A stretch of DNA of 63,643 nucleotides, counting the filler. It is 5 parts of 5 records of this genome, joined end to end, with 100 filler letters (N's around TTAATTAATTAA, not from the genome) between each part and the next. Parts side by side here need not be neighbours in the genome. Positions count along the whole stretch, not along the records: positions 1 to 12,609 come from DRR723986_10791; 4 more parts are not named here. The stretch is one strand, 5' to 3'. This document shows positions 1,847-53,307 of the stretch, piece by piece (within the stretch, counting starts at the first letter, position 1; every line of letters begins with the position of its first letter). A program made the translations under genes and the position numbers. Under the pieces are notes generated by a model, which was not told the origin of the DNA, ran no database searches, and saw only the letters and a list, made by a program, of their open reading frames with translations.

Positions 1847-3142
1847 ATGTATCAATGGAAACTGATCCTCGTTTTAGCAATGGCTGCTTTTGGTTCTTCG
1901 CACGCCCATGCAGACACAACCATATACCGTTTTGCCAAAATTATTGACGGTACTGGCGAGGTTTTAAATGGCCGCGATATCGCGGTTGATGGCAAACACA
2001 TCAAAGCTGTAGGTAATAACCTAGACCGTGTTATGGAAGGCGAACTTGTCCTGATGAGTGGCCTTACGACTCTGCCCGGCCTCATTGATGCGCATACGCA
2101 TATCACCTACGGTCTTAACAATTACCCTGAAGGCGACGCATGGGCAGCTTTAGGCGCAGTTGAGCGCGCAGAACGCTATGAAGCATCGAAAATTAATGCC
2201 CAGAAAACTTTGCAAACCGGTGTTACCAGTGTTCGTGATCTGAACGCAGATCAAAATTTGGACTTTGATCTTAAGGCTGCGATAAATGCAGGGGAAATAC
2301 CCGGCCCGCGGATTTACACTTCCGGCCCCGGTATTCACCCTTTTAATGATCCATTGCCAGAAGGCACAGAAACTGCCACAGCCGACTTTTTGCAAAAGGC
2401 TGCAGAAAAACGCATTGCCATGGGCGCAGACTGGATCAAGATTTTTGGTACAACAGGCAGCGCCTCTGACCTGACGAGCAGCGCCTATTATTCAGCAACG
2501 GCCATTAAAGCCGCAGCTGATGCAGCCAAAGCCGCAGGCAAGCGCATAACCGTTCACACATATGGCCCTGAGGCGGTTGATGCGGCCATAGCAGCTGGTG
2601 TTACATCTATCGACCACCCGGTTGGCATGTCGGCTGCACAAATAAAAGCGATGGCGGACACGGGCATAATTTATGTACCAACTATTGACCACAATCGTTA
2701 CTACGCACAGCACGGGGCCGAGTATGGTTATGACGATGCTGTTCGCACTGGTTTGCATGTATTTGTTGGCCGCAACATTGAAACTACTCGGCAGGCACAC
2801 ACAGCCGGCGTTATGATCGCAATGGGGTCTGACGCTGTCTTAAGCGGATTCGGCGAAAACACCTGCGAACTGAAAGCCTTTATCGCTGCAGGTATGACGC
2901 CCGCAGAAGCCGTACAAACGGCAACGATAAACGGCGCCCGGCTTCTGGGCGAAGAGGCAAACTTAGGCAGAATTCAAGCCGGTTATGAGGCTGACTTTGT
3001 TGCTGTTGCTGGAGACCCGCTGACCGATATTGGCGTTGTTACAAACGGTGTTGTCGCTGTAATGAAAGCAGGAGAACTGGTGGTTGACCACCGCCTAAAC
3101 CCGGCGATGGTCAACAAACCTGATTGTGGCACCCTCTATTAG
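1847..3142 (+). CDS. Exported metal-dependent amidohydrolase (Xaa-Pro dipeptidase-like)
   Basis: Signal peptide ending AHA-D; metal ligands DAHTH, WIKIF (Lys), VHTYG, DHP, GSDA; GGAG RBS upstream. Confidence 0.88.
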   Translation: MYQWKLILVLAMAAFGSSHAHADTTIYRFAKIIDGTGEVLNGRDIAVDGKHIKAVGNNLDRVMEGELVLMSGLTTLPGLIDAHTHITYGLNNYPEGDAWAALGAVERAERYEASKINAQKTLQTGVTSVRDLNADQNLDFDLKAAINAGEIPGPRIYTSGPGIHPFNDPLPEGTETATADFLQKAAEKRIAMGADWIKIFGTTGSASDLTSSAYYSATAIKAAADAAKAAGKRITVHTYGPEAVDAAIAAGVTSIDHPVGMSAAQIKAMADTGIIYVPTIDHNRYYAQHGAEYGYDDAVRTGLHVFVGRNIETTRQAHTAGVMIAMGSDAVLSGFGENTCELKAFIAAGMTPAEAVQTATINGARLLGEEANLGRIQAGYEADFVAVAGDPLTDIGVVTNGVVAVMKAGELVVDHRLNPAMVNKPDCGTLY

Positions 3143-3165: not shown

Positions 3166-6100
3166 TCACTGGCCATCATGATGGTCAGTTTTCCGGTCAT
3201 CGTTCCGGTAAATATCGGGATTATCCCAAGGCTTCGGACCAAACGGCTTCGCCATTGGCCAAATTTCGTCAAGCGTTTCAGCATCACGGAGAACGCCGCC
3301 TTGCATAACATGGCCAATGTCGAGTGTGTTGCGAATGTCATCAAGCGGGTTGGATTTCAACACCACCAAATCACCAAGTTTACCAACTTCAAGGCTGCCA
3401 ATGTCTTCGCTAGCACCAAGGAAATGTGCGCCGTGGCGTGTTGCCACCTCAAGCGCGCCATGAGCACCCATAGCACTTGCCACCATCCAGGTTTCCCAGT
3501 GCGAGCCAATACCATGCTGCTGACCATGTGACCCGATGGCACCGTAACCACCCTCTGCAATAACATCCGCCATGCCTTGTGCAATCATAGGGAAACTATA
3601 ATCTGTCTCTGGTCGCTTAATAGGCCTGCGAGTATTAGGAATCAACTGGCGCCACGGCAACCATTTGCGTTGTTTTGCATCCTGCCAGACATTTGTTTCC
3701 TGCCAGAAATATTCCTCGTTCCAAGCGCCCGGGCCGCCTACAACAAAGGTAGGAGAGTAAACCGCCTTGGCTTGCCCGAAGAATTTGGCCGCATCGCTGT
3801 AAAGCGGGGCATAACTCATGGGATGCTCGAAACCAGTTTGGCCATCCATAATCATCCCCAGATTGTAAGCAAGGTCCGAGCCTTCGGAAGTAACCATAAT
3901 GCCTTCTTTACGAGCGATATCACTAACCCACTGGCGCTGGTCCCGGCGCGGCTGCAAATACTGCTTTGCCATTACAGCACCCCAAGATTTAAGGCGCTTA
4001 ATGTTGTCTTCGGCAACACTGTAACTGGTTAACAGGTTGGTTCTGGCATCATCGCGGTTATACAAAGGGCCACCTGCTGAATAGGTACGGGGGCCAATTA
4101 CCTTGCCAGCCTCAATCAATTCAGCCGCTGAAAAAACATTCTGCGCTGCCACTGCGTTATCAAGCGCTGTGGTCACACCGTAAGCCGTGTAGATGGCTGT
4201 TTCATAGCCGCGCGCCGGGATGATACCGCGGTAATCACGGAAATGGTGGGCGTGCATGTCAACAAAGCCCGGAATGATGGTAGAGCCAGAGGCATCAATT
4301 ACCCGGTCAACACCCGATGTATCGCATGTTCCAACACACGAAATACGACTACCGCTGACAACAATGGTCGCATTTTCAAGCACTTCCTTACCGCGCATTG
4401 TGATAATACGTGCGCCCGTAAGCGCAATAGCACCCTCAGGAATGCGTTTTTCAACCGACAGAGACAGCTTGGTTTCGCTGGTTTCGCCGCTTGCTACATC
4501 ATGGGCATAATAGGTGGACGCAGAGCCAAACTCCAGCGTGCCGCTATCACGCCATGTTGGGAACAAACCGCCAGTTTTGGAAAGTTGTTTAACGGGCAAC
4601 ACACCCCGCCCAGCTGTTTTGCTGATTAAAATGGGCTTTGCCCGCGCTTGCTCATACGGTAGCGGCGAGAGATAAACATTATCCCCCTCCAAAAAAGCCA
4701 CATGACTGCCGTTAGGTGAAATAACCGCCTCATCGGCAAAGTCAAACCGAGCATGTATGCGCGGTGGGTCAATCGAAGGCAACAAAGAAACTGAAACCAA
4801 CTGGGAATACCCTGCAGGTCCATCGCCTTCTGCAAACTCATCATCGCCGTGCAGAGAAAATTCCTCATTTTCTATGCCAGAGCTGGATCCTTTAACACCT
4901 TCAAGATAAAAAATGCGATTGTCCGGCCCCCATGAAGGGCGCGGTAATTGCCCTCGACCACGACCAAACCGGTCACTGTAATCAATGCGGGCAACGGCTA
5001 CTGCGTTATCACCGTCAGCGTCCATGCGAACCACGTCCCAATATGGATTGTGGGTTACTTCGCGGCCTCTTGCATTGGCATTGCCGCTTTTCACAACCAC
5101 CAGCATTTTACCGTCAGCGCTCCAGTCGGGGTGAATATACTCGCTGGCTTGTGTGGTTATTTGTTTCGGACGACCACCGCCAGAGGCGCGCACTGTCCAA
5201 ACCTGCCCGCGCTCAAGGTCATCCCATGTGGTAAAGGCAATGGTCTTGCCATCAGGCGACCAGGCTGGTGAAAACTCAAACGGTACGAAACTGTCTCGTG
5301 TTAGCCGTTTGGCCGTTCCATTGGGAAGGTCCTGAACCCAAATTTTACCAACCGCCTGAAAAGCCAGTTTAGACCCATCAGGCGATGCTGCCGTCCAGCG
5401 TATAAACTGAGATTCGAACGGGTCATCCGTGATACGGAAACCTTTATACGCTTGTTCTGAAATTGTGCGTTCAACTTTGGCGGAAAACGGAATGGTAGAA
5501 ACCTCACCACTTGCAACATCAACGCGGCGAATTTTGCCGCCTTGAGACAAAATAACTGACTTACCGTCTGGCGCGAAACTGTAGCCTGGAAGCACGCGCA
5601 AGGTTTTCATGCCCTCGACCATGTCCTGGGTCACAGGGTCCATCAAAATACGTTCTGTACCACTTTCCATATCCCGCAACCAAAGGGCGGTACGCGGCCC
5701 GAATTTTTGGCCCTTGTGAGATACTGTTCCATCGGGAATGCGGCGAATGAAGGTCATCAATTTGCCGTCAGGCGAAATTTCCGGGGCTGCCGCACCGCCA
5801 CTGGAAAAACGCGACTGCTGCTGGTTAAAGCCGTGACTAACGCTAGTCACATCGCCGGTTTCCAAACTTAAACGGCTTACCTGAATTTCACCCGCGAGAA
5901 AATTCCATTGTCCCCAAGTAGTACCGCCGCTGGTGCGTTTGTGAAAATACAACCATTTACCGTCTGCCGATGGGCTTGGCCATGCCGCTCCAGCCTCTTC
6001 GCGCCCGATAAGTTGAATGCCTTTACCGCCGTCTTTGTGGAACATCCAAATACCCACATCTGGACGACCAGATGGCGAAGGTAGGCCGCGTTTGCGCGTG

Positions 6101-6576
6101 TAAATATAATTGCTATCTGCGCTCCATGTGGGGGTTAAAAAACGAGCGTTCAGGTCTTTAGAAACTTGTCTTGGGTTCGAACCATCGGCATCCATTACCC
6201 ATATGTTATCTTGCCCACCCCGGTCAGAAATAAAAGCAATTGAGGTTCCGTCGGGCGAATATCTGGGATGATAATTGGTGGCAACACCGCTGTCTTGCGT
6301 CAAGCTTACCGCATCACCGCCGTTAATAGGCATACGGTATACATGCGCGAGCAAATCGAAAACCACCCACTGGCCGTCTGGGGAAACATCCACCGACATA
6401 AAGGTGCCCTCATCCGTGGTGAAGGAAATTTGGCGAGTGTCACCGCGCGCGATCGTGGTGTCCCATGCCTCTTTCTTTGCCTCGTGCCCATCAGCATGAA
6501 CAGCTGGCATTATCGCCAGTGTTTGCGCAGCAAGTAGCAACCCGGCTGAACCTAATGATTTGCAAAAATTTTTCAT
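3166..6576 (-). CDS. Exported TolB/PD40 beta-propeller + amidohydrolase fusion protein
   Basis: Signal peptide; repeated SPDG/SADG blades; C-terminal PGFVDMHAH...GSHGQQHG...GSLEVGKLGDLVVL amidohydrolase domain. Confidence 0.9.
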   Translation of the reverse strand: MKNFCKSLGSAGLLLAAQTLAIMPAVHADGHEAKKEAWDTTIARGDTRQISFTTDEGTFMSVDVSPDGQWVVFDLLAHVYRMPINGGDAVSLTQDSGVATNYHPRYSPDGTSIAFISDRGGQDNIWVMDADGSNPRQVSKDLNARFLTPTWSADSNYIYTRKRGLPSPSGRPDVGIWMFHKDGGKGIQLIGREEAGAAWPSPSADGKWLYFHKRTSGGTTWGQWNFLAGEIQVSRLSLETGDVTSVSHGFNQQQSRFSSGGAAAPEISPDGKLMTFIRRIPDGTVSHKGQKFGPRTALWLRDMESGTERILMDPVTQDMVEGMKTLRVLPGYSFAPDGKSVILSQGGKIRRVDVASGEVSTIPFSAKVERTISEQAYKGFRITDDPFESQFIRWTAASPDGSKLAFQAVGKIWVQDLPNGTAKRLTRDSFVPFEFSPAWSPDGKTIAFTTWDDLERGQVWTVRASGGGRPKQITTQASEYIHPDWSADGKMLVVVKSGNANARGREVTHNPYWDVVRMDADGDNAVAVARIDYSDRFGRGRGQLPRPSWGPDNRIFYLEGVKGSSSGIENEEFSLHGDDEFAEGDGPAGYSQLVSVSLLPSIDPPRIHARFDFADEAVISPNGSHVAFLEGDNVYLSPLPYEQARAKPILISKTAGRGVLPVKQLSKTGGLFPTWRDSGTLEFGSASTYYAHDVASGETSETKLSLSVEKRIPEGAIALTGARIITMRGKEVLENATIVVSGSRISCVGTCDTSGVDRVIDASGSTIIPGFVDMHAHHFRDYRGIIPARGYETAIYTAYGVTTALDNAVAAQNVFSAAELIEAGKVIGPRTYSAGGPLYNRDDARTNLLTSYSVAEDNIKRLKSWGAVMAKQYLQPRRDQRQWVSDIARKEGIMVTSEGSDLAYNLGMIMDGQTGFEHPMSYAPLYSDAAKFFGQAKAVYSPTFVVGGPGAWNEEYFWQETNVWQDAKQRKWLPWRQLIPNTRRPIKRPETDYSFPMIAQGMADVIAEGGYGAIGSHGQQHGIGSHWETWMVASAMGAHGALEVATRHGAHFLGASEDIGSLEVGKLGDLVVLKSNPLDDIRNTLDIGHVMQGGVLRDAETLDEIWPMAKPFGPKPWDNPDIYRNDDRKTDHHDGQ

Positions 6577-6648
6577 GACAAGACCTCGCTATTTTTGAAC
6601 CGACGGCGAAGCACTTTAGATATAGCTCCCCCACTATTCCCCCATTAA

Positions 6649-6676
6649 AGTATAACCAGCCTCACAAATTTGACAA
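6649..6676 (-). promoter_or_regulatory. Putative sigma70 promoter for the propeller-amidohydrolase gene
   Basis: Minus strand TTGTCA-N16-TATACT about 70 nt upstream of the ATG at 6576. Confidence 0.4.
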
Positions 6677-6806
6677 GAAATCCGCCCGCAAGGCTTTAGT
6701 TTAGTGAAAAAGCATCCTATGAACGTAAATTCGTAGGTAAAAATATGAAATAGTTGCCCATAATAGGGACTTTACTGTTGAATATTACGTAGCATTCAGA
6801 GGCAGT

Positions 6807-7706
6807 ATGATGTTTGAAGGGTTTACCACTGAAACAATAAAAGGTGCCGGTACAGATATTTTCCTGCGCCGAAGCGGGCCTGACGGCGCGCCTGCCCTTT
6901 TGATGTTGCACGGAAACCCGCAAACCTCTGCCATGTGGCATAAAGTTGCACCGGTGCTGACAAAGAAATTTCAAGTCATTTGCCCCGACTTGCGGGGTTA
7001 TGGTCGTTCAGGCAAACCCCCTTCAACGCCGGATCATGCACCCTATTCCAAGCGAGTAATGGCAGCAGATATGGTGGCTGTTATGAAAAGCCTTGGGCAT
7101 GAACGGTTTTTTGTAGCGGCTCATGACCGCGGTGCTCGCGTAGCGCACAGGCTGGCACTGGATAGCCCTTCATGCGTGATTGCCATGACCTTACTGGACA
7201 TCGCGCCAACAAGGGAAATGTACGCAAAGACTACAGCAGACTTTGCCCAAGCCTATTGGCACTGGTTTTTGCAAACGCAAAAAGCACCCATTCCAGAAAA
7301 TATTATCGGTGCCGACCCCGAAGGGTTTTGGAAGCTCAAGTGCTTCAATCAGGCGGGCAGCCACTTGTTTGACCCGGATGCGCTAACAGAATATCTGAAC
7401 GCATTCAAAGACCCAGCCATGATCCATGCTTCCTGCGAAGATTACCGCGCCGCAAGAACAATAGACATTGAGCATGACAATGCAGACGGCTCTCGTAAAC
7501 TTGAAACACCCTTGCAAGTATTATGGGCGCAGAGCGGCGCGATTGAGAAATGTTTTGAACCGCTGAAATTATGGCAAAGCCGGGCTTCAAATGTGATTGG
7601 CGAGGCAATGAACTGCGGCCACTATATGGCCGAGCAAATACCTGAAGCCATCATTGCAAAACTTACCCGTTTTTTCGCTAACCACATGAATGAGCCAAGC
7701 CAATGA
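6807..7706 (+). CDS. Haloacetate/fluoroacetate dehalogenase-type alpha/beta hydrolase
   Basis: LHGNPQT; nucleophile motif HDRGARVAHR (Asp-Arg-xx-Arg); LLDIAP; YWHWF; CEDYRAA; GHYMAE. This is the residue set of FAcD-type enzymes. Confidence 0.85.
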   Translation: MMFEGFTTETIKGAGTDIFLRRSGPDGAPALLMLHGNPQTSAMWHKVAPVLTKKFQVICPDLRGYGRSGKPPSTPDHAPYSKRVMAADMVAVMKSLGHERFFVAAHDRGARVAHRLALDSPSCVIAMTLLDIAPTREMYAKTTADFAQAYWHWFLQTQKAPIPENIIGADPEGFWKLKCFNQAGSHLFDPDALTEYLNAFKDPAMIHASCEDYRAARTIDIEHDNADGSRKLETPLQVLWAQSGAIEKCFEPLKLWQSRASNVIGEAMNCGHYMAEQIPEAIIAKLTRFFANHMNEPSQ

Positions 7707-9097
7707 CCGCACGCACATTATATGACAAACTGGTTGATGCGCACAAAGTTTGTGACCTGCCCGGCGGCGACATTCTGGTATATGTCGATTTCCACATTAT
7801 GAATGAATATACAAGTCCACAGGCTTTCTCAGGGCTTGAAGCTAAGGGCATACCCGTGTGGCGGCCAGAAGCCCATTTATCTGTGGTGGACCATGTTAAT
7901 GGCACCAGACGGCGAGAAGGCCCGGACGAAGCCTCACGGTTGCTCATTAGCAACCTTGAACAAAACTGCAAGAAACATGGCATTGCACTATACGGTTTGG
8001 GTGACCCTCGCCAAGGCATTGAGCATGTTGTAGTGCCAGAACAGGGGCTGGTAGCACCGGGTATGCTTGTTGCCTGCGGTGATAGTCACACCACCACATA
8101 CGGTGCTTTCGGTGCGCTTGGCTTTGGCATTGGCACGTCTGAGGTGGAACATGTGCTGGCCAGCCAAACGCTGCGCTATCAGCGATTAAAATCAATGCGG
8201 GTGACAATCGACGGTGAAACCGCACCCGGCGTTACCGCCAAAGACATAATTATGCAGGTTATAAAAACCGTGGGCGCGGGGGCAGCTAATGGGTATGCCG
8301 TTGAATTTGCCGGGTCGACCATTCGCGCGCAAGACATGGCCGGACGCATGACAATATGCAACATGGCGGTTGAACTTGGCGCCCGCGCAGCTTTAATTGC
8401 TGCCGACGAAGTAACCCACGCCGCCTGCCAAGGTAAAGAACATAGCGCCTTCATGAGCTATGACCTTAACCAATGGCAATCAGACGCCGGCGCTGCATTT
8501 GATCGCGACATAGTACTTAACGGCGCGGACATCAGTCCGTTGGTTAGTTGGGGCACAAGCCCCGACCAAACATTGCCCGTGGGCAGCCAGCTCCCGCGTG
8601 AAGCGGACATGTCAACACCCGCTGCCAAACAAGCATTACACCGTTCGCTAAAATACATGGGCTTATCCGAAGGCCAACCTTTGACGGGCGTACCAATCGA
8701 CATGGCCTTCATTGGCTCTTGCACAAACAGTCGCATTGAAGACTTGCGGGCAGCAGCAAAGATACTTGCGGGCCGCAAGGTCGCAGACGGCGTGACCGCC
8801 CTAATCGTTCCGGGGTCAATGGCGACGAAACTTCATGCAGAGGCCGAGGGGCTTGATAAGGTTTTTATCGAAGCAGGATTTGAGTGGCGACCAGAGAGCG
8901 GATGCTCCATGTGCCTTGCCATGAACGACGATGTAGCGATGGACGGCGAGCGGGTGGCCTCATCTACCAACCGCAACTTTGAAGGCCGTCAGGGCCGTGG
9001 CGCACGTACACACTTGATGAGTCCCGCAATGGTGGCTGCGGCTGCCGTCGCCGGGCATATTACTGATGTACGTGATTTTGCAAAGAAGGGGGGTTAA
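7703..9097 (+). CDS. leuC: 3-isopropylmalate dehydratase large subunit homologue (divergent paralogue)
   Basis: RTLYDK, CGDSHTTTYGAFGALGFGIGTSEVEHV, RMTICNMAVE, GSCTNSR, GCSMCLAMN, SSTNRNFEGRQG; ATGA overlap with upstream gene. Confidence 0.9.
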   Translation: MTARTLYDKLVDAHKVCDLPGGDILVYVDFHIMNEYTSPQAFSGLEAKGIPVWRPEAHLSVVDHVNGTRRREGPDEASRLLISNLEQNCKKHGIALYGLGDPRQGIEHVVVPEQGLVAPGMLVACGDSHTTTYGAFGALGFGIGTSEVEHVLASQTLRYQRLKSMRVTIDGETAPGVTAKDIIMQVIKTVGAGAANGYAVEFAGSTIRAQDMAGRMTICNMAVELGARAALIAADEVTHAACQGKEHSAFMSYDLNQWQSDAGAAFDRDIVLNGADISPLVSWGTSPDQTLPVGSQLPREADMSTPAAKQALHRSLKYMGLSEGQPLTGVPIDMAFIGSCTNSRIEDLRAAAKILAGRKVADGVTALIVPGSMATKLHAEAEGLDKVFIEAGFEWRPESGCSMCLAMNDDVAMDGERVASSTNRNFEGRQGRGARTHLMSPAMVAAAAVAGHITDVRDFAKKGG

Positions 9098-9102
9098 CCG
9101 AA

Positions 9103-9708
9103 ATGCCAACTGAAATTTCAGGTAAAGCCGCTGCCTTCGCACAACCGAATGTTGATACTGACGTAATCATGCCAAAGCGGTTTCTTAAAACCATCACGCG
9201 CGAAGGCTTGGCAGAGGGCACTTTCGCTGATTTGCGCTTCACAGAAACCGGGTCCACACGACCGGAATTCATTTTAAATACCACTGGTTGGCGCGATGCA
9301 TCAATTTTGGTGGTGGGCAGCAACTTTGGTTGCGGGTCAAGCCGAGAACATGCGGTTTGGGGGCTCAAGCAGCTGGGTATTAACGCCATTATAGGCACAG
9401 ATTTTGGTGGTATTTTCTACGATAATGCCCGCAAAAATGGCCTCGCACTGCCCATCGTTTCAGAAGAAAGCCGCAACAGCCTATTACTCTTGGCAGGCGA
9501 TTTAAGCACAGCACAATTCCAGATCAATATCGCTGAGAAAACTGTAAAGGCAGGCCCGGAAACCTTTACTTTTGAAATGGCCGAAACCGTACAAACTGCC
9601 CTTATTGAGGGCCAAGATGAAACCCTGGACACATTGAAACTGGCGAGCCAAATCAAGGCGTTTGAAATGGCAAACCCAAATAACCTGAAGCTTCAGGTTA
9701 ACAAGTAG
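9103..9708 (+). CDS. leuD: 3-isopropylmalate dehydratase small subunit homologue
   Basis: NVDTDVIMPKRFLK, NFGCGSSREHAVW, FGGIFYDNARKNGL; 5 nt after leuC. Confidence 0.9.
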   Translation: MPTEISGKAAAFAQPNVDTDVIMPKRFLKTITREGLAEGTFADLRFTETGSTRPEFILNTTGWRDASILVVGSNFGCGSSREHAVWGLKQLGINAIIGTDFGGIFYDNARKNGLALPIVSEESRNSLLLLAGDLSTAQFQINIAEKTVKAGPETFTFEMAETVQTALIEGQDETLDTLKLASQIKAFEMANPNNLKLQVNK

Positions 9709-9738
9709 CCTAACCCACCAAGCAGAGTTGGAAAAAAC

Positions 9739-10965
9739 ATGCACAGACATTTATCAACCGTTTTGCTAACTGCAGCTATTTGGATATTTGGTTTTTTCTC
9801 GCCAGCATTGGCAGAAGATTACGCGCTGATAAACGGCAAAATTTTCAACGGCGTTGATAATAAGATTATCGACGGCCAAACAGTTTTCATCCGTGATGGG
9901 AAAATCAATGTTATTGCCAGTGCCGACGTTGATATCAGCCCCGACTACACAGTTATCGACCTGGAGGGGTATTACCTTATGCCAGGCATGTTTGATGTGC
10001 ATACGCACCTGGCAACACTTGCTCAGGCGCGGCGGGCGCTTGTCTCAGGTGTCACTACAGTTCGCAGCGCCAGCGTTAAGGCATATGAAGATGTTGCCCT
10101 GCGCGAACTTGTGCGCAGTGGGGCGCTAGAAGGGCCAGATGTGGTCGCTGCCGGAGTCTATGTTACCCCCAAATTGGGCGAGACAGTTTTGGCCGACCCT
10201 CGCCTCGCGGCTTTGCACGGCGGCGTCAATACTGATGAGGAACTACGAACACTGGTACGGGTTAATATTGACCGCGGTGCTGACGTGATCAAAACCCGCG
10301 GGACCGAACGCGCTGGCCTTGCAACAACCGACCCGCGGCAGCAGGTTTATACCGAACGGCAATTAAAGGTAGTTGTCGATGAAGCCGCCAAACATAATGT
10401 GCCGGTTCTGGTGCATGCACACGGCGATGAAGGCGGCATGGCCGCGGTAAAAGCCGGTGCGCGCAGTATTGAACACGGCACCTATCTTTCAGATGAAACG
10501 TTATCGCTAATGCAGGAACGCGGCACGTGGCTGGTGCCAACCTATGTCACCATGAACGAAATGAACGAAGAGCAATACGATCATGTTCTCAGGTTGCGCG
10601 GCAAGCACATGATACCGCATTTGGAGCGGGTTATTCGCAGCGCCCATAAAATGGGGGTAAAGTTCGCCACCGGGGCCGACAATTATTATGACAATAAGTC
10701 CACCAACCGAATTTCCATCGAGGTTGAGCATTTTACACGGTTGGGCATGAGCAATTTTGAGGCACTGCAAACCGCCACTGTTAGTTCTGCCGACCTTTTG
10801 GGCCTCGGCAACACCACAGGCCAAATTACCGAAGGCTATGAAGCCGATATGATTCTGGTTCCCGCGAACCCGCTTGAAAACATTGCAGCCTTGCAAGACG
10901 TATTGATGGTAATCAGCAACGGTCAAGTTGCCCTTAAACGCATCCCTTTCGGCGTCAGCGAATAA
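9739..10965 (+). CDS. Exported metal-dependent amidohydrolase (Xaa-Pro dipeptidase-like)
   Basis: Signal peptide ending ALA-E; DVHTH, VIKTRGT, HAHG, IEHG, GAD motifs. Confidence 0.88.
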   Translation: MHRHLSTVLLTAAIWIFGFFSPALAEDYALINGKIFNGVDNKIIDGQTVFIRDGKINVIASADVDISPDYTVIDLEGYYLMPGMFDVHTHLATLAQARRALVSGVTTVRSASVKAYEDVALRELVRSGALEGPDVVAAGVYVTPKLGETVLADPRLAALHGGVNTDEELRTLVRVNIDRGADVIKTRGTERAGLATTDPRQQVYTERQLKVVVDEAAKHNVPVLVHAHGDEGGMAAVKAGARSIEHGTYLSDETLSLMQERGTWLVPTYVTMNEMNEEQYDHVLRLRGKHMIPHLERVIRSAHKMGVKFATGADNYYDNKSTNRISIEVEHFTRLGMSNFEALQTATVSSADLLGLGNTTGQITEGYEADMILVPANPLENIAALQDVLMVISNGQVALKRIPFGVSE

Positions 10966-10971: not shown

Positions 10972-12609
10972 TCAATGCGTATGCGCACCGCCCGCGCCTG
11001 ACGGCACCCGTATGGTTTCAACCAAATCCTGCACTTCTTGCGGTGTGCTGGCGGTGAAGTGTTTAACCAAGAACGCTGCACCAATATTCACGAACATTCC
11101 AACAAACCCAATGCCTTCTGGTGAAATACCAAACAGCCAATTGTCCGTAACATTCAACTCTGGCGACACAAACTTAAAGTAAACGATGTAGCTAAAGGTG
11201 AAGGTAAGGCCTGCCAGCATACCGGCGATCGCCCCTTCCTTATTCATGACTTTGGTGAATATGCCCATGATAATAGCAGGGAAAAGGCTGGCAGCAGCAA
11301 GACCAAAGGCGAAAGCAACCACTTGCGCAACAAAACCCGGCGGATTAATGCCGAAATAGCCAGCAATCAAAATCGCTACAATAGCCGCCAACCGCGCGGC
11401 GCGAAGTTCCTGCGCGTCACTAATGTTAGGCATGAAGGTTTTCTTCATGACATCATGGCTGATCGACGATGAAATCACCAATAGCAAGCCTGCAGCCGTA
11501 GAAAGAGCCGCCGCAAGCGAACCGGCAGCCACCAGCGCCACTACCCAGCCCGGCAACCCTGCAATTTCGGGGTTGGCCAGCACCATGATATCACGGTCTA
11601 CATAGGCCTCATTCGCGTTATCGGTTGGCGGGTTCGTAACAGTTCGTTCACCTGAAGCACCGCGCTTATCACCGTCGAAATCAGGTTTGCCGACAAAAGG
11701 CGCGCCAGCGCTATATTGAATAACGCCGTCCGCATTTTTATCTTTCCAGGCAACAAGGCCAAGATCTTCATAGTTTTTGTAAACCTCAGCAACCTCGCTG
11801 TAAGGCGTGTCATTGACGCTGTCGATAAAGTTAATGCGCGCAAAAGCCCCCACCGCCGGTGCGGTGGTATAAAGAATGGCAATAAACACCAAGGCCCACC
11901 CGGCTGATGTACGAGCGTCAGACGCTTTAGGTACCGTGAAGAAACGTACAATAACGTGCGGCAGGCCCGCGGTGCCGAGCATAAGAGCCGCCGTTATAGC
12001 AAAGATATCAACCATTGATTTGCTGCGCTCGGTATAGGCGTTAAAGCCAAGGTCCACCAGCACTGCATCCAACTTTTCCAGCACATACATGCCTGAACCG
12101 TCGGCCACCTCAGACCCCAAACCCAGTTGCGGAATTGGATTGCCGGTTATTAGCATTGAGATAAAGATAGCAGGCACCGTGTAAGCGAAAATAAGCACGC
12201 AGTACTGTGCCACCTGCGTGTAGGTAATGCCTTTCATGCCGCCCAAAACCGCATAGAAAAACACGATGGTCATACCGATGATAACGCCCATGTCGATATC
12301 AACTTCAAGGAAGCGGCTGAACACGATGCCAACACCGCGCATCTGCCCGGCCACATAGGTAAAGCTGATAAAGATCAGGCACACAACCGCCACAAGCCGG
12401 GCTGTGTCAGAGTAATAGCGTTCACCAATAAAGTCGGGCACGGTGAATTTACCAAACTTTCGCAGGTACGGAGCCAGTAGAAGCGCCAGCAACACATAGC
12501 CACCAGTCCAGCCCATAAGGTACACCGAGCCATCATAGCCCAGAAAAGCGATCAACCCTGCCATCGAAATGAAGGAGGCCGCCGACATCCAGTCAGCCGC
12601 TGTCGCCAT
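10972..12609 (-). CDS. Sodium:solute symporter, ActP-like cation/acetate symporter family (5' truncated)
   Basis: MATAADWMSAASFISMAG, GGMKGITYTQVAQY, GTAGLPHVIVRFFTV, DKNADG loop, AALSTAAGLLL; ORF begins at contig edge. Confidence 0.9.
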   Translation of the reverse strand: MATAADWMSAASFISMAGLIAFLGYDGSVYLMGWTGGYVLLALLLAPYLRKFGKFTVPDFIGERYYSDTARLVAVVCLIFISFTYVAGQMRGVGIVFSRFLEVDIDMGVIIGMTIVFFYAVLGGMKGITYTQVAQYCVLIFAYTVPAIFISMLITGNPIPQLGLGSEVADGSGMYVLEKLDAVLVDLGFNAYTERSKSMVDIFAITAALMLGTAGLPHVIVRFFTVPKASDARTSAGWALVFIAILYTTAPAVGAFARINFIDSVNDTPYSEVAEVYKNYEDLGLVAWKDKNADGVIQYSAGAPFVGKPDFDGDKRGASGERTVTNPPTDNANEAYVDRDIMVLANPEIAGLPGWVVALVAAGSLAAALSTAAGLLLVISSSISHDVMKKTFMPNISDAQELRAARLAAIVAILIAGYFGINPPGFVAQVVAFAFGLAAASLFPAIIMGIFTKVMNKEGAIAGMLAGLTFTFSYIVYFKFVSPELNVTDNWLFGISPEGIGFVGMFVNIGAAFLVKHFTASTPQEVQDLVETIRVPSGAGGAHTH

Positions 12610-20835: not shown

Positions 20836-20912
<77 letters not shown>

Positions 20913-43853: not shown

Positions 43854-44027
43854 CAGGCGCTCCGTTTCCATTCAGGTTGCGTTGGCGTTGTCCTAGGGGA
43901 AAACGCCGCCAACAGGAAGTGTTGAAAGCGACGCAGCACCCCTGCAAGGCGGCAGGGCTGGCACAATCGCGCCAGTTATGCTTTTTTCACCCCAAGACAC
44001 CCCGGCGCCCCAATCAAAAGGTCAGAT

Positions 44028-44789
44028 ATGCCCATCGCGATAGCATTTGCCGCCTCTGACGCGCCGCTGGCCCAAACCGCGCGTGCCGCGCTGATCGGCC
44101 AATATGGCAATGTGCCCGAAGAACAGGCGCAGGTGATCGTGGCGCTGGGGGGCGATGGGTTTATGTTGCAAACCCTGCATCGCACCCAAGAGCTGGACGT
44201 GCCCGTTTACGGCATGAATCGCGGCACCGTGGGCTTTTTGATGAATGCCTATTGCGAGGGCGATTTGCTGCGCCGCCTGTCTGATGCCCAGGAAGAGGTG
44301 CTAAACCCCCTGCGCATGCATGCCGAATGCGCCGATGGCAGCCAGCATAATGCCTTGGCCATCAACGAAGTATCGCTGCTGCGCCAGGGGCCGCAGGCCG
44401 CCAAGCTGCGCATCACCGTCGATGGCCGGCTGCGGATGGAAGAGCTGGTTTGCGACGGGGCGCTGGTTGCTACGCCCGCGGGCTCGACCGCGTATAACTA
44501 TTCCGCCCACGGGCCGATTTTGCCCATTGGATCAGATGTTTTGGCGCTGACCGCGATTGCGCCCTTTCGGCCCAGGCGCTGGCGCGGGGCCTTGCTGCCC
44601 AAAAACGCCAAGGTGCGCATCGATGTGACCGAGCCTGAAAAGCGCCCCGTGATGGCCGATGCCGATTCGCGCTCGGTGCGCGATGTGGTGTCAGTGGAAA
44701 TCAGCAGCGCCCCTGAAATTGCCCATCGCATCCTGTTTGACCCGGGCCATGGGCTGGAAGAGCGGCTGATCCGCGAACAATTCGCCTAA
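44028..44789 (+). CDS. nadK: NAD kinase
   Basis: LGGDGFML, GTVGFLMN, AINE, DGALVATPAGSTAYNYSAHGP. Confidence 0.95.
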   Translation: MPIAIAFAASDAPLAQTARAALIGQYGNVPEEQAQVIVALGGDGFMLQTLHRTQELDVPVYGMNRGTVGFLMNAYCEGDLLRRLSDAQEEVLNPLRMHAECADGSQHNALAINEVSLLRQGPQAAKLRITVDGRLRMEELVCDGALVATPAGSTAYNYSAHGPILPIGSDVLALTAIAPFRPRRWRGALLPKNAKVRIDVTEPEKRPVMADADSRSVRDVVSVEISSAPEIAHRILFDPGHGLEERLIREQFA

Positions 44790-45082
44790 TTGCCCGCCGC
44801 CAGCGCGGCAAACAGCTGGCGGTTTTCACAGCCGGCCAGCGCCTGGTCTTCTTTGCGCCTGTTACCCTTTAAAAACGCTTTGCAGGGCTGCACTTGGGCG
44901 CAGCCACGGCAGCGCGTCAGCAACGCGCCCCACTCTTCCAGGCTTAACGCGCCACTGCGCCGTGCGGCCACCAGATCGGCGCCTTGGGCACGGGCCATAT
45001 CCTGCACCAGCCAGAAATGGGTAACGGCATCGCCCAAAACCCGTGGGCGCGTGGGCGAGGATGGTTTGGCATAAAACGTCAT
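44786..45082 (-). CDS. Small Cys-rich protein, DUF6455-like
   Basis: GGAGG RBS before ATG 45082; RCRGC-x5-C...CEN pattern. Confidence 0.75.
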   Translation of the reverse strand: MTFYAKPSSPTRPRVLGDAVTHFWLVQDMARAQGADLVAARRSGALSLEEWGALLTRCRGCAQVQPCKAFLKGNRRKEDQALAGCENRQLFAALAAGN

Positions 45083-45137
45083 CGGCACCTCCCTGTGATG
45101 GCAGGCACCAGACTGGGCCAGCGCGGCGGCGGTGGCT

Positions 45138-45151
45138 TTGATCTTGATCAA
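45138..45151. promoter_or_regulatory. FNR/FnrL binding site
   Basis: Perfect TTGAT-CTTG-ATCAA, 55 nt upstream of the DUF6455-like start codon. Confidence 0.8.
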
Positions 45152-45161
45152 GGCGCCGCGC

Positions 45162-45521
45162 TTAGGCAGGGGCGTGCTGGGCCAACAATGCCTCGACACA
45201 GGTTTGCACATGGCGAAACCGGTCGCCGCCCAGGTGTTTGCCCCCATACCAGCGCGTCACCACCACCGCCAGGTTGCGCCGCTCGGCGCGTTCCAGCATG
45301 CGCAAAATCACCATGCCGGCGCCCGCCTCGCCATCGTCGTTTTTCAGCTGCGTGCCGTCAGTCAGCACCGCCGCCCATGTGTTATGCGTGGCCTTTGCGA
45401 ATTTCTTGTTGCGCTTCAACGCTTTCAGGAAATCGGCAATCTCGGCTTCGGTTTCCACCACCTGCCCAGACACAGCGTAGCGCGAGCCGCGATCGGTCAG
45501 CACATGGGCAATCTGCCACAT
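45162..45521 (-). CDS. YigZ/IMPACT-family protein (N-terminal domain only)
   Basis: DRGSRY, KATHNTWA, DDGEAGAG, VVTRWYGGKHLG. Confidence 0.9.
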   Translation of the reverse strand: MWQIAHVLTDRGSRYAVSGQVVETEAEIADFLKALKRNKKFAKATHNTWAAVLTDGTQLKNDDGEAGAGMVILRMLERAERRNLAVVVTRWYGGKHLGGDRFRHVQTCVEALLAQHAPA

Positions 45522-45523
45522 GC

Positions 45524-46225
45524 CTACAGCCCTGCCGCCACGCGGCGCACGGTTTCAATACGCTGCGCATTCGGGGGGTGGGTGCCCAAAAAGCGGTTCC
45601 CGGGGTCAGGAATGCGGGTGAAAAACGCAGCGCCGCGAATAGGGTCGAACCCTGCGCGCAGGGATATCACCGTGCCCAGCGCATCGGCCTCTAGCTCGAA
45701 ATCCTTGGAATAGGTGCGCGCGCCCACCGTCGCCCCCAGCTCTTGCGCCGATCTGATGCCGTTCACATCTGCCCCGGTCAGGCTGGCAAGACCTGCAAAA
45801 ATCACCGCCCCCGCGGTGGCTGCCTCGCGCTGGCGCGCCAGGTGGCCGGCAATGTGATGCGCGGCCTCGTGGCCCATCACAAAGGCCAGCTCGTCGGCGT
45901 TTTGCACCGTGGCAATCAGCGCCAGGTTAAAGGCCAGCACCGGGCGCCCCTGCGCATCAAGCGTTTGAAAGGCATTGGGCGGCTGGCCGGGCCGGTCATC
46001 GACCACGATCTTGAAATCGCAATTGGCATTTGGCAAGCGCTGGCGGCATTCGGCCTCGGCCACGGGTTCAACCTGCTGCACCACGCTGATAAATTGCCGC
46101 GCGGCCTGATCTGGGGGCAGGCTGGGCACCAAGGCCGGGCGCGGCTGCGGCGCGGGCGTGGGGGCCGTGCCCATACAGGCGGAAAGACTGGCCATCAGGG
46201 CCAAAGATGTCAGCAAACGCAGCAT
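45524..46225 (-). CDS. M48-family zinc metallopeptidase lipoprotein
   Basis: Lipobox LSAC; PNAF; GHEAAHH; ELEAD; THP. Confidence 0.92.
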   Translation of the reverse strand: MLRLLTSLALMASLSACMGTAPTPAPQPRPALVPSLPPDQAARQFISVVQQVEPVAEAECRQRLPNANCDFKIVVDDRPGQPPNAFQTLDAQGRPVLAFNLALIATVQNADELAFVMGHEAAHHIAGHLARQREAATAGAVIFAGLASLTGADVNGIRSAQELGATVGARTYSKDFELEADALGTVISLRAGFDPIRGAAFFTRIPDPGNRFLGTHPPNAQRIETVRRVAAGL

Positions 46226-46344
46226 GCGCGATCCTTACACCAAAGCAAAAACCATATGCCACACTTAGCAGCCTTTGCGCCCAGCGCCATAGCTTGGCGC
46301 ACCAAAGCGCTTGCAGTGGCGAAAAAGGGCCGTAACATGGGGCT

Positions 46345-46578
46345 ATGTTCAGCATCGAGCACGATTTTGACGCCACAGTGATCACCCTGATCGACGAGGG
46401 CCAGGCGCCCTTGGCCGAAGATATCACAATCAATGCCTTTGCCGAATGCATCACCCTGGAACAATACGACGCGCGTAGCGACAGCGTGCAGAAAATCACC
46501 CTGTCGATCACCCAGCTGAATGAATTGGCCCTGGCACTGAACCTGCCCGAGGGGCTTTATTCGCGCCTGCAGCGCTAG
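46345..46578 (+). CDS. Small acidic hypothetical protein
   Basis: 77-aa ORF filling the gap, host-like codon usage, stop overlaps yggU stop. Confidence 0.7.
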   Translation: MFSIEHDFDATVITLIDEGQAPLAEDITINAFAECITLEQYDARSDSVQKITLSITQLNELALALNLPEGLYSRLQR

Positions 46579-46838
46579 GGCTGATAGCGAAACACCTTAT
46601 CGCGCGCGGTTGCGCCGCGCACCAAAACCAGCTGGGTTTTGGCCACGCCCATGGCGCGGGCCAATAATTTACGCACGGCCTCATTGGCTTTGCCATCTTC
46701 GGGGGGCGCGGTGACATAGGCGCGCAACTGCCCCTCGTGCCACAGCAGCCTGTCACGGCTGGCTTTTGGGGTAACGCGCAGGGCAATATCGGTGCCACTG
46801 ACCGCAAGCTGGGATAAATTGATGTGTTTCACTGCCAT
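46575..46838 (-). CDS. DUF167 / YggU-family protein
   Basis: LRVTPKASR, VTAPPEDGKANEAV, GATARDK. Confidence 0.9.
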   Translation of the reverse strand: MAVKHINLSQLAVSGTDIALRVTPKASRDRLLWHEGQLRAYVTAPPEDGKANEAVRKLLARAMGVAKTQLVLVRGATARDKVFRYQP

Positions 46839-46905
46839 GCCAAAGCATGGACAATTCCGCCGCCGAATTGAATAGTTGGCATCACAGGACTGCAGGGGCA
46901 AACAG

Positions 46906-48012
46906 ATGGCGACAGGCTTTTTTCATGACGAGCGGTGTTTTTGGCATTCGGGCGGCAACTATGCCCTGACCCTGCCAGTGGGCGATCTGGTGCAGCCGCT
47001 GGCGGCAGGCGGGCTGCCAGAAAGCCCCGAAACCAAACGCCGGTTGAAAAACCTGGCCGAGGTCAGCGGCCTTTTGGCCACGCTCAAGGTGCAAAGCGCC
47101 GCGCCCGCCACATGGGAAGATCTGGCGCGCGTGCACCCCGAAACCTATTTGCAGGCCTTCAAAGATCTCTCCGATGCGGGGGGCGGTGAATTGGGCCTGC
47201 GCACCCCTTTTGGCAAGGGCGGGTTTGAAATTGCAGCCCTCTCGGCGGGGCTGGCCAAGGCCGCGCTGCATGCGGTGGCCACGGGGCAGCTGGAAAATGC
47301 CTATGCGCTGTCGCGCCCGCCGGGCCACCACTGCCTGCCCGATTGGCCCAACGGCTTTTGCCTGATGGCCAATATCCCCGTCGCCATCGAGGCCGCCCGC
47401 GCCGCCGGTTTGCTGGGGCGTGTGGCGGTGGTGGATTGGGATGTGCACCACGGCAATGGCACCGAAGCCATCTATTACGAGCGCGCCGATACCCTCACCA
47501 TCTCAGTGCACCAAGAGCGCAATTACCCCTTGGATACTGGCGATATCACCGATCGCGGGCGCGGCGATGGCATGGGCAGCAATATCAACATCCCCCTGCC
47601 CCCCGGCGCCGGGCATGACACCTATATGCAGGTGATGCGCCGCATTATCCGCCCCGCGCTCGAGGCGTTTCAGCCCGATGCCATCATCGTGGCCTGTGGC
47701 TATGATGCCAGCGCCTTTGATCCGCTGGCGCGTATGCTGGCCTCGGCCCAAACCTTTCGCGAGATGACCGCTGAAATCAAAGACGCCGCCACCCAGCTGT
47801 GCCAGGGCCGGTTGCTGATGGTGCACGAGGGCGGTTATTCCGAGGCCTATGTGCCCTTTTGCGGCCATGCGGTGCTAGAGGCGCTGTCAGGCAGCCCCAT
47901 CACCGCCCCCGACCCAATGGCCCATGCGGTGGCCGCGCGCCAGCCCAACGCACGCATGCAGGCCGTTTATGCACAGCTGGTCGAAGAGATGGCGCAGGAA
48001 CTGGGCCTTTAG
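46906..48012 (+). CDS. Class II histone deacetylase-like amidohydrolase (HDAH-type)
   Basis: RPPGHH, GFC, DWDVHHGNGT, GYDA, HEGGY. Confidence 0.93.
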   Translation: MATGFFHDERCFWHSGGNYALTLPVGDLVQPLAAGGLPESPETKRRLKNLAEVSGLLATLKVQSAAPATWEDLARVHPETYLQAFKDLSDAGGGELGLRTPFGKGGFEIAALSAGLAKAALHAVATGQLENAYALSRPPGHHCLPDWPNGFCLMANIPVAIEAARAAGLLGRVAVVDWDVHHGNGTEAIYYERADTLTISVHQERNYPLDTGDITDRGRGDGMGSNINIPLPPGAGHDTYMQVMRRIIRPALEAFQPDAIIVACGYDASAFDPLARMLASAQTFREMTAEIKDAATQLCQGRLLMVHEGGYSEAYVPFCGHAVLEALSGSPITAPDPMAHAVAARQPNARMQAVYAQLVEEMAQELGL

Positions 48013-48048
48013 GCCCGCCCAAACGCGTTTGTTTTAGAAAGGATTTTT

Positions 48049-48627
48049 ATGCCCACCCCAAACCCTGCCGCGTTAGAATTTTTGCTCAGCCGCCGTTCGC
48101 GCCCGGCAAAAACCCTAACCACCCCCGTGCCCAGCCGCGAGGCGCTGTTGCCGCTGCTGACCGCGGCCGCGCGCACCCCCGACCATGGCAAGCTGGAACC
48201 ATGGCGCTTTATCGTGCTGGGCCAAGCCGCCCTGGCGCGGCTGGGCCAAACCGCCCGCCTGCGCGCCCAAGAGCTGGGCTATGATACAGAAAAGGCCGAC
48301 AAAGGCGCCAACCAGTTTGAAACCGGCACGCTGGCTGTGGCGGTGATCGAGGTGCAGCGCGACAGCGCCAAAATACCGCCACTGGAAATGACCTATTCCG
48401 CCGGCGCGGCCTGCCTTGCGCTGCTCAATGCCGCCTTGGCGGCAGGTTGGGGCGCCAATTGGCTGTCGGGCTGGCCCAGCCATGATGCGGGCTTTGGCCA
48501 AGCGGCGCTGGGGCTGGCTGAAAACGAACGGATCGCAGGCTTTATCCATATCGGCACCGAAACCGCCGCCCCGCCCGAACGCCCCCGGCCCGACTTGGAA
48601 AAGATCGTGACATGGGCATTGGATTGA
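48049..48627 (+). CDS. Nitroreductase family protein (YdjA-like)
   Basis: RRSRP, AARTPDHGKLEPWRFIV, GWGANWLSG. Confidence 0.92.
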   Translation: MPTPNPAALEFLLSRRSRPAKTLTTPVPSREALLPLLTAAARTPDHGKLEPWRFIVLGQAALARLGQTARLRAQELGYDTEKADKGANQFETGTLAVAVIEVQRDSAKIPPLEMTYSAGAACLALLNAALAAGWGANWLSGWPSHDAGFGQAALGLAENERIAGFIHIGTETAAPPERPRPDLEKIVTWALD

Positions 48628-49328
48628 TCTTCAAAAGCTTTGGCAAAACCTTGGGTCAAATCACCGACCCACGGTTTTCGCGCGTGCTGCTGTTGGGCCT
48701 GGCGCTGACGCTGGCGCTGCTGGTGGGCGCCTATGCGCTGGTTTTGTGGCTGGTGCAAATGCTGGTGGGTGACACGCTGACATTGCCGTGGATTGGCACG
48801 ATCAGCGGGCTTGATACGCTGCTGGGTTGGTCTAGCCTGCTGCTGATGATGGTTTTGTCTGTGTTTTTGATGGTGCCTGTCGCCTCGGCCATCACCTCGA
48901 TGTTTCTCGATACGGTGGCCGACGCGGTCGAGCAGCGCCACTACCCCGGCCTGCCACCGGCCACCCCCCTGCCCATGGGCGAGGCGGTGAAGGACACGAT
49001 CAATTTCTTGGGGCTATTGGTGGCGGCCAACGTGCTGGCACTGGTGGTCTATCTGTTTGTATTCTGGATCCCCTTTGCCCCGGCCCTGGTGTTTTGGGGC
49101 CTGAACGGGGTGCTTTTGGGGCGCGAGTATTTCACCCTGGCCGCCGCGCGCCGCCTGGGCCGCGACGGGGCGCGCCAGCTGCGCAAGCGCCATCGCGGCA
49201 CCATCTGGTTGGCGGGGTTTTTCATGGCCATCCCGCTGAGCGTGCCCTTGATGAACCTTGTGATCCCGATCTTGGGTGCGGCCACCTTTACCCATATTTT
49301 TCACGGGCTGACGAAAAGGGTGGGCTAA
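48612..49328 (+). CDS. EI24/CysZ-like membrane protein
   Basis: Multiple TMs; FLDTVADAVEQRHYP, NGVLLGREYF, VPLMNLVIP. Confidence 0.85.
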   Translation: MGIGLIFKSFGKTLGQITDPRFSRVLLLGLALTLALLVGAYALVLWLVQMLVGDTLTLPWIGTISGLDTLLGWSSLLLMMVLSVFLMVPVASAITSMFLDTVADAVEQRHYPGLPPATPLPMGEAVKDTINFLGLLVAANVLALVVYLFVFWIPFAPALVFWGLNGVLLGREYFTLAAARRLGRDGARQLRKRHRGTIWLAGFFMAIPLSVPLMNLVIPILGAATFTHIFHGLTKRVG

Positions 49329-49345
49329 GAAAAACAGGGGCTGAT

Positions 49346-49374
49346 AAAAAAGGCGGGCTGATGCGCCCGCCTTT
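49346..49374. terminator. Bidirectional terminator between convergent genes
   Basis: AAAGGCGGGC-TGATGC-GCCCGCCTTT with A tract. Confidence 0.7.
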
Positions 49375-53306: not shown

Positions 53307-53307
53307 A

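Follow-up and report, generated by a model that had tools for sequence, protein, structure and literature searches.

We analysed a set of adjoining genes for a fluoroacetate dehalogenase (FAcD)-family hydrolase and a two-subunit, LeuCD-like hydro-lyase in a window of 63,643 nt, by which we mean the whole stretch of DNA under study, filler between its joined parts included. The open reading frame (ORF) map places a 299-aa alpha/beta hydrolase, P0001, at 6807..7706 on the + strand (Pfam PF00561, 91 bits), followed on the same strand by a 464-aa LeuC-paralogue large subunit of the aconitase-family [4Fe-4S] hydro-lyases, P0002, at 7703..9097 (PF00330, 487 bits), and a 201-aa LeuD-paralogue small subunit, P0003, at 9103..9708 (PF00694, 93 bits). 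The hydrolase/LeuC junction reads CCAATGACC, with the ATGA overlap at 7703-7706; the LeuC stop codon TAA is separated by 5 nt from the LeuD ATG, and the LeuD stop codon TAG by 30 nt from the ATG of an amidohydrolase gene, exactly as an earlier, sequence-only reading of this DNA had described. The hydrolase and LeuCD genes form a real and conserved cassette, apparently new to the literature, whose enzymes come from known families but have changed in specificity. We read the genes at 6807-9708, with a probability of roughly 0.55, as a pared-down version of a widespread accessory cassette for catabolism, which in its complete form also includes a LysR activator and an uptake system of C4-dicarboxylate type.

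The intergenic region upstream of the hydrolase gene (6577..6806, + strand), beyond which a gene for a 1136-aa PD40/amidohydrolase protein runs divergently, is the presumed location of the promoter of the three-gene unit. A consensus scan of 6577-6806 gave no convincing + strand sigma-70 site, and no + strand terminator-like site was found within 6807-10965. The absence of leuA and leuB that had been claimed for this DNA was borne out to the extent that a Pfam scan of the 52 larger ORFs of the window (11 + 41) detected no family of leuA or leuB type.

We scanned species-representative genomes with P0002, took the 80 closest LeuC loci and searched their 6-kb flanks for a FAcD-like gene by tblastn. 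A homologue of P0001 (42-81% identity) was present in the flanks of 67 of these 80 loci, which is far beyond chance. The pairing is thus not peculiar to this contig, and the gene-neighbourhood co-occurrence that the sequence-only reading proposed to look for reaches across the Alpha-, Beta- and Gammaproteobacteria, in some 20 named genera. Together with six loci from an even genome sample, these make 73 linked loci, some of them kin and hence not independent, which fall into four arrangements. The hydrolase gene lies directly upstream on the same strand in 24 loci, from Rhodobacteraceae and relatives and including the window (23 with 39 nt or less between the aligned ends); it is divergent and upstream in 9 loci (Rahnella, Ewingella, Dyella, Ahrensia, Roseibium and Rhodomicrobium), 1.6-3.4 kb downstream on the opposite strand in 33 loci of the Pseudomonas fluorescens group, and directly after LeuD in 7 loci (Sphingopyxis, Duganella, Herbaspirillum and Azotobacter). 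Since gene order and orientation vary over three proteobacterial classes, we argue, kinship notwithstanding, that the linkage is functional rather than inherited, in line with the suggestion that the pair is a functional unit. The nearest comparison genome, G001, has a single LeuC, 54% identical to P0002, and neither a close FAcD-like gene nor the cassette.

The novelty claimed for this pairing also stood, as literature searches, with supplements outside their scope, returned no description of a FAcD-like gene paired with LeuCD. LeuCD is likewise not mentioned in the accessible part of a recent preprint on the gene context (synteny) of FAcDs (10.1101/2025.07.23.666183).

P0001 matched the PDB entries 3qyj (Alr0039; 1.5e-90), 9c9f (2.9e-88), 3r3u (6.1e-76) and 1y37 (2.6e-75), as well as 8sdc and 8sdd, while its matches to epoxide hydrolases were weaker (7ac0, 3.6e-25; 1ehy, 1.1e-18). 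It keeps D107, R108, R111, D131, H152, W153, Y213 and H272, and these eight residues align with those of 3qyj, the deposited fluoroacetate dehalogenase 9c9f, and 8sdc, so that the catalytic and His/Trp/Tyr halide-pocket residues noticed in the sequence-only reading are all present and match solved structures. An HGNP motif (35-38), of the HGXP oxyanion type seen in alpha/beta epoxide hydrolases, is also present. In a column analysis of 154 aligned family members, from which four long-branch rows had been dropped, D107, R108, R111, D131 and H272 were invariant or nearly so; we take the arginines to form the carboxylate clamp, H272 to be the base and D131 the acid Asp. The window hydrolase and linked clades A and B have the halide pocket H152/W153/Y213, and Trp replaces the pocket His at position 152 in the linked hydrolases of clade C (Sphingopyxis, Duganella). 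A Klebsiella plasmid hydrolase, which was not placed on the tree, has the same Trp-for-His motif as clade C. Y213, Y139 and Y150 are kept in all linked clades, and Y139 or Y150 might pair with Y213 as the two cap-domain tyrosines of epoxide hydrolases do. Among the clade-specific substitutions of the hydrolases, none supplied an additional cationic residue shared by the clades that could indicate a site for a second carboxylate; R136 is confined to clade A.

P0001 shares the alpha/beta fold of the fluoroacetate dehalogenases (EC 3.8.1.3) RPA1163 (3r3u) and FAc-DEX FA1 (1y37), to which it scores 257-259 bits, and like them has an Asp nucleophile, an Arg-x-x-Arg clamp, a His base, an acid Asp and a His/Trp/Tyr pocket. 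The roles of Asp110, His155, Trp156 and Tyr219 in RPA1163 are described in the accessible part of PMC5000767. The cassette hydrolases differ from these enzymes at several positions near the pocket, namely N/Y/H37 for Phe, H114 for Tyr, M138 for Tyr, Y139 for Trp, Y150 for Ile, E195 for His and H223 for Leu/Ile, and also in their genomic partners, which are a dicarboxylate transporter and a hydro-lyase. In addition, P0001 lies in a different part of the family tree from RPA1163, whose clade is never linked to LeuCD. This FastTree phylogeny comprised 158 family members, with duplicate loci (L092-L096) and weak G001 matches (L005-L011) excluded. All 75 linked hydrolase rows fell inside one 109-row subtree, P0001 among this LeuCD-linked part, and the remaining 49 rows were all unlinked, including the clade nearest RPA1163; RPA1163 itself falls in an unlinked outer clade (501 bits to L163). 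The structure 4nvr is nearest to the hydrolase of Sphingopyxis type (402 bits). The hydrolase and LeuC trees show matching clades.

P0002 carries the cluster cysteines C340, C401 and C404 and, like LeuCD of leucine biosynthesis (EC 4.2.1.33), belongs to a two-subunit enzyme of the aconitase family with Asp-His, Asp-Ser-His, Asn...Glu and Asn-Arg motifs, whose roles we assume to be those of aconitase. Both subunits pass the NCBIfam cut-offs, P0003 with 150.1 bits on TIGR00171 (cut-off 116.25) and P0002 with 593.4 bits on TIGR00170 (cut-off 560.25), a pass that, as a matter of score, is marginal. The paralogues scored 571-660 on TIGR00170 compared with 770-892 for canonical LeuC, and NF009116 was the best model for the paralogues (681-801, P0002 at 688 bits, vs 752-779 for canonical LeuC). 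All P0002 relatives bear the public name "3-isopropylmalate dehydratase large subunit"; among the named organisms, Kordiimonas aquimaris comes closest (80% identity).

A LeuC tree of 112 rows, built with FastTree only and leaving the relations among clades unresolved, separated a canonical clade of 22 rows (SH-like support 100) that excludes the window and contains no linked row. Its members come mostly from genomes with a single LeuC match, along with L001 and the 53-54% identical copies of cassette genomes (L097-L101). Linked rows made up 27 of the 30 in clade A, which contains the window, 45 of the 56 in clade B and 2 of the 4 in clade D. The linked LeuC of clades A and B together with the four clade D rows (76) all have N34, Y36, V/I65, E107, Y133, G140, A195, V223 and A230, at positions where the canonical residues, H/V/N/V/H/A/G/I/G, are invariant in 22 of 22 rows. 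In the window, the LeuC changes are accordingly H34N, V36Y, N65V, V107E, H133Y, A140G, G195A, I223V and G230A, along with TS421-422ST and A444V, and the NEYTSPQ motif that had been singled out in P0002 proved to contain two of the signature residues (N34, Y36). Several signature residues adjoin Gln, Asp-His, His and Asp-Ser-His motifs that are presumably catalytic, as in aconitase. LeuD has its own signature when compared with 18 canonical LeuD sequences: I23M, P85V, A87G, D103G (Glu in clade D), F110R/Q (F110R in the window) and P116L. The change of the LeuD Phe to Arg or Gln, together with the new Tyr and Glu of LeuC, would fit a polar rather than an isopropyl substituent on the substrate.

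Taken together, the separate clades, the fixed substitutions beside catalytic residues in both subunits, the lower TIGR00170 scores and a context without leuA or leuB distinguish the cassette LeuCD from the canonical enzyme, so the non-canonical nature that had been ascribed to it holds. Other cassette genomes also have a second copy: the six cassette genomes of the even sample have two LeuC-like matches each, and the extra LeuC of five cassette genomes (G002-G006) is 53-54% identical to P0002. As a separate observation, hydrolase-less LeuC paralogues of the same clades occur (L037, L038, L041, L053, L191), one of their contexts being a D-2-hydroxyacid dehydrogenase with a class II aldolase.

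The neighbours of 29 linked loci were typed by Pfam, NCBIfam or record annotation. A LysR regulator stands beside the module in 23 of these loci and a carboxylate transporter in 14 (TRAP DctPQM in 6, TctABC in 3, a DctA-type carrier in 4 and an MFS transporter in 1), and no other enzyme recurs among these neighbours. Among solved structures, DctP proteins for C4 dicarboxylates come closest to the TRAP binding protein of Ruegeria (4o94, 333 bits); we take these entries to contain succinate or malate. TtdR was the best model for the LysR regulators of Pseudomonas (395 bits), Rahnella (374), Pantoea (307) and Klebsiella (289), all compared with a cut-off of 398. Rfam searches found no fluoride riboswitch in the window or in six cassette loci, and no fluoride-exporter family turned up among the scanned neighbours. 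In the window and in loci L012 and L013, the three enzyme genes stand alone amid genes for secreted amidohydrolases.

Starting from the observed linkage, paralogy, altered active-site neighbourhood and transporter and regulator types, we infer a substrate, an order of steps and products. Asp-nucleophile hydrolases with an Arg clamp attack the carbon that bears the leaving group beside a carboxylate, yielding a 2-hydroxy acid with inverted configuration, and aconitase-type enzymes dehydrate 2-hydroxy-dicarboxylates to cis-alkenes. Since the transporters are of di- and tricarboxylate types, we favour two successive steps, one for each enzyme, on a substituted dicarboxylate, and since the cassette has its own C4-dicarboxylate uptake and no third conserved enzyme, two steps should reach central metabolism. 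At odds that we put at slightly better than even, the hydrolase and the LeuCD paralogue would thus be a cassette of two enzymes that suffices to break down a C4 dicarboxylate whose C2 bears a leaving group. In this scheme, a succinate-like dicarboxylate bearing an epoxide oxygen or a halide at C2 would be taken up, R108 and R111 would hold the neighbouring carboxylate, and D107 would attack C2. H272 and D131 would then hydrolyse the alkyl-enzyme ester to release an inverted 2-hydroxy (vicinal-diol) dicarboxylate, from which the Fe-S LeuCD paralogue would eliminate water in anti fashion to give a cis-enol. Tautomerisation of this enol would yield a 2-oxo acid belonging to central metabolism.

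The instance that we favour, tentatively, is the conversion of trans-2,3-epoxysuccinate to meso-tartrate, and of meso-tartrate via enol-oxaloacetate to oxaloacetate. By our own derivation, replacing the isopropyl group of (2R,3S)-3-isopropylmalate with a hydroxyl gives (2R,3S)-tartrate, which is meso-tartrate, and anti-elimination from meso-tartrate leads to an enol of cis (maleate-type) configuration, which is the geometry of aconitase-family products. Meso-tartrate is also the hydrolysis product of trans-epoxysuccinate in the reaction of EC 3.3.2.4, a Pseudomonas enzyme of the 1960s to which, to our knowledge, no gene has been assigned; literature searches on "trans-epoxysuccinate" returned no relevant paper. 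Hints of tartrate or oxaloacetate metabolism come from the TtdR-like LysR regulators, a FAH-family gene in the Klebsiella cassette and the mqo neighbour of the Pantoea cassette, the FAH family being one that we believe to include oxaloacetate decarboxylases and tautomerases. Meso-tartrate is described as merely an inhibitor of the Fe-S class-I fumarase/L-tartrate dehydratase in the accessible part of one preprint (10.1101/2023.06.17.545066) and as not fermented by Salmonella in that of another (10.1101/2023.12.08.570695), which leaves a slot open for a distinct meso-tartrate dehydratase. It is conceivable, though doubtful, that the cassette accounts for two activities that have long been without a gene: a fluoroacetate-dehalogenase scaffold would serve as trans-epoxysuccinate hydrolase, and a LeuCD scaffold as the meso-tartrate dehydratase of pseudomonads.

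The E. coli ttdR-ttdAB-ttdT system offers a functional analogue of this proposal, as it likewise combines a LysR activator, a dicarboxylate carrier and a two-subunit Fe-S dehydratase, and the cassette LeuCD, too, would yield oxaloacetate. The E. coli system lacks a hydrolase partner, and TtdAB, unlike the cassette LeuCD, is an enzyme of the class-I fumarase family; its substrate is (R,R)-tartrate and, going by the available part of 10.1101/2023.06.17.545066, meso-tartrate inhibits it. The proposed first step would resemble the chemistry of EC 3.3.2.4 and of the cis-epoxysuccinate hydrolases (CESH), in which epoxysuccinate is opened hydrolytically to tartrate. Known CESH enzymes have other folds, either HAD-like or a Zn-dependent barrel; CESH[L] is related to haloacid dehalogenase, and epoxysuccinate chemistry on a dehalogenase scaffold thus has a precedent.

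Several observations weigh against a dicarboxylate cassette of this kind. In an even sample of 401 Pseudomonadota genomes, one of them (G389) unpublished and the basis of no particular claim, 68 genomes carried a FAcD-like gene (E of 1e-40 or better) at 89 places, and with 8 kb inspected on each side, 6 of these 89 places were linked to both LeuC and LeuD, so the family must have other roles. The hydrolase is missing at 13 of the 80 closest LeuC loci, 5 of which (L025, L033, L047, L075, L090) are shorter than the full 6-kb flanks, and nine hydrolase-less loci as well as the unlinked L191 show other contexts (GntR plus TRAP, D-2-hydroxyacid dehydrogenase, AtuA, PrpD); the LeuC paralogue group may hold several specificities. 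The window lineage (window, L012, L013) lacks a dedicated regulator or transporter, and the LysR regulators are not orthologous across lineages, being AlsR/HcaR-like in Ruegeria and HypT-like in Sphingopyxis. As to a second LeuC, a further LeuC-like gene is present in 11 of 11 other cassette genomes, a comparison that did not extend to the window's own genome. We know of no natural marine occurrence of trans-epoxysuccinate. The halide pocket is fully retained in the window's clade, as in true defluorinases, and the PDB entry nearest to the linked Pseudomonas hydrolase (L043) is 9c9f (418 bits), a deposited fluoroacetate dehalogenase for which literature searches found no describing paper. Finally, these data do not tell an epoxide apart from a halide or from some other leaving group. 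The suggestion made in the sequence-only reading that the enzymes act in sequence on a halogenated or epoxy dicarboxylate is thus favoured in its first part, by the di- and tricarboxylate transporters and the conserved pairing, with the choice between halogen and epoxide left unseparated.

A first alternative, which we consider unlikely even with its variants counted in, is that the hydrolase is a true dehalogenase of 2-halosuccinate, 3-halomalate or haloacetates whose hydroxy-acid product is processed by the LeuCD paralogue, or that the pair serves to detoxify fluoroacetate and fluorocitrate. The intact halide pocket of the window's clade, where every FAcD catalytic residue is kept as well, makes a role on halo-dicarboxylates or haloacetates possible, and the closeness of 9c9f to L043 and a plasmid annotation reading "Haloacetate dehalogenase H-1" point the same way. 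However, the product from a haloacetate would be glycolate, which is no substrate for an aconitase-type enzyme, and D- or L-malate from halosuccinate would either need no LeuCD or go to maleate, a dead end without an isomerase. The Trp-for-His change in the clade C and Klebsiella plasmid hydrolases and the position of the archetype RPA1163 in an unlinked clade also argue against a halo-acid route. The haloacetate and fluorocitrate detoxification that had been put forward earlier fits poorly, as the uptake transporters and LysR activators point to nutrition rather than detoxification and neither a fluoride riboswitch (window and six cassette loci) nor a fluoride exporter (scanned neighbours) was found.

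A second alternative, which we judge to be rather improbable, has the LeuCD paralogue work alone or take the first step, hydrating or isomerising an unsaturated or branched dicarboxylate, with the hydrolase at another step of the same pathway; maleate/D-malate, citraconate/citramalate and, among tricarboxylates, hydroxycitrate would be candidate substrates. Activities of this sort are known from aconitase-family paralogues, among them maleate hydratase and dimethylmaleate hydratase, the three loci with a TctABC tricarboxylate-type transporter would suit a tricarboxylate, and the same clades include LeuC paralogues that lack the hydrolase and sit next to other organic-acid genes. Against this, the Asp nucleophile and Arg clamp imply a leaving group beside a carboxylate rather than an ester or lactone, the isomerase, lyase or CoA-transferase that such a route would require is not conserved in the cassette, and the TRAP binding protein belongs with those for C4 dicarboxylates. 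That the LeuCD is an ordinary leucine-biosynthesis enzyme and the hydrolase a chance neighbour is very improbable: both subunits pass the LeuC/LeuD cut-offs, the relatives are all named 3-isopropylmalate dehydratase and the check for second copies covered other cassette genomes, but P0002 lies outside the canonical clade with a far lower TIGR00170 score (593 vs 770-892), residues invariant in 22/22 canonical LeuC and 18/18 canonical LeuD are changed, leuA and leuB were not found nearby, 11/11 other cassette genomes have a further LeuC-like gene, G001 has its 54%-identical LeuC without the cassette, and the linkage is conserved over three classes.

If the cassette does serve epoxy- or hydroxy-dicarboxylate catabolism, part of the "defluorinase" family would do so natively, and the FAcD family, now mined for the defluorination of per- and polyfluoroalkyl substances, would have a native role that does not involve fluorine; this would help to account for FAcD-like genes in 68/401 sampled Pseudomonadota genomes. 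If the cassette accounts for the two orphan activities considered above, thousands of proteins annotated as LeuC or LeuD would be mis-named tartrate-type dehydratases. On the broader reading, a large, widespread LeuCD paralogue group now named for leucine biosynthesis would gain a function, with a bearing on metabolic models and auxotrophy predictions. Gene candidates would also be at hand for orphan steps of tartrate and epoxysuccinate metabolism.

The cassette would in that case also be a small mobile catabolic unit, carried among others by clinical and bovine Klebsiella plasmids. We found it on Klebsiella, Pantoea and Paraburkholderia plasmids, and LeuCD and the hydrolase lay side by side in 10 of 10 plasmid records common to both plasmid listings. 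The single Klebsiella cassette that was inspected in full (L211; K. pneumoniae IncFIB/IncHI1B plasmid NZ_CP050827.1, 1-12419) is flanked by IS903/ISKpn24 and contains genes for an MFS transporter, LeuC, LeuD, a FAH-family protein, the FAcD-like hydrolase and a TtdR-like LysR regulator. Its hydrolase recurs at an identity of at least 99% on 56 plasmid records; of the 205 records that matched, 61 are from Klebsiella, with human, bovine milk and chicken sources. The Pantoea cassette is on a megaplasmid, where it adjoins mqo. In a marine metagenome-assembled genome (L018:560-10619), TRAP DctPQM, the hydrolase, LeuCD and a LysR regulator lie between two genes that combine DUF6538 with a phage integrase, an arrangement suggestive of a mobile island. 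A Sinorhizobium plasmid match (H1) comes without annotation. The plasmid-borne FAcD-like genes of Komagataeibacter, Acetobacter and Pseudosulfitobacter were considered as examples from a tartrate niche and set aside, as they are not linked to LeuCD.

The amidohydrolase gene downstream of LeuD (P0004; 9739..10965, + strand; 408 aa with a signal-peptide-like N terminus; Amidohydro_1, PF01979, 132 bits) lies within the stretch picked out in the sequence-only reading; we reject it as a cassette member. A homologue was present in 2 of the 80 related loci (L012 and L013) and in none of the other 78; it adjoins LeuCD in L013 only and lies 4.4 kb off in L012, with an efflux cluster between. On this basis P0004 is a neighbour rather than a member of the cassette, although it may be co-transcribed with it. 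P0004 scored 216 bits against the Xaa-Pro dipeptidase model NF051886, below the cut-off of 500. It is one of three paralogous amidohydrolases around the cassette (1847-3142, 3166-6576 and 9739-10965; 76-216 bits on NF051886, all below the cut-off), and the one in 3166-6576 is fused to PD40 beta-propeller repeats, making 1136 aa. L012 shows the same amidohydrolase neighbours as the window.

Beyond P0004 lies a VC_2705-family sodium/solute symporter ORF (10972-12609, - strand) that begins at profile position 41 of 547; its homologue in L013 has 591 aa, and the window ORF may have its true start upstream or be truncated at the N terminus. The G+C content is 0.59-0.64 at 44000-56000 of the window compared with about 0.50-0.55 elsewhere, and this jump may reflect an island, a compositional domain or an assembly chimera; the genes there are of housekeeping type (NAD kinase, histidinol dehydrogenase, an EPSP-synthase-fold, murA-like protein, UPF0262 and DUF2948). 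The sole Rfam match at gathering score in the window is a tRNA gene at 20839-20912 (- strand), which sits upstream of the thrS-infC and pheST region.

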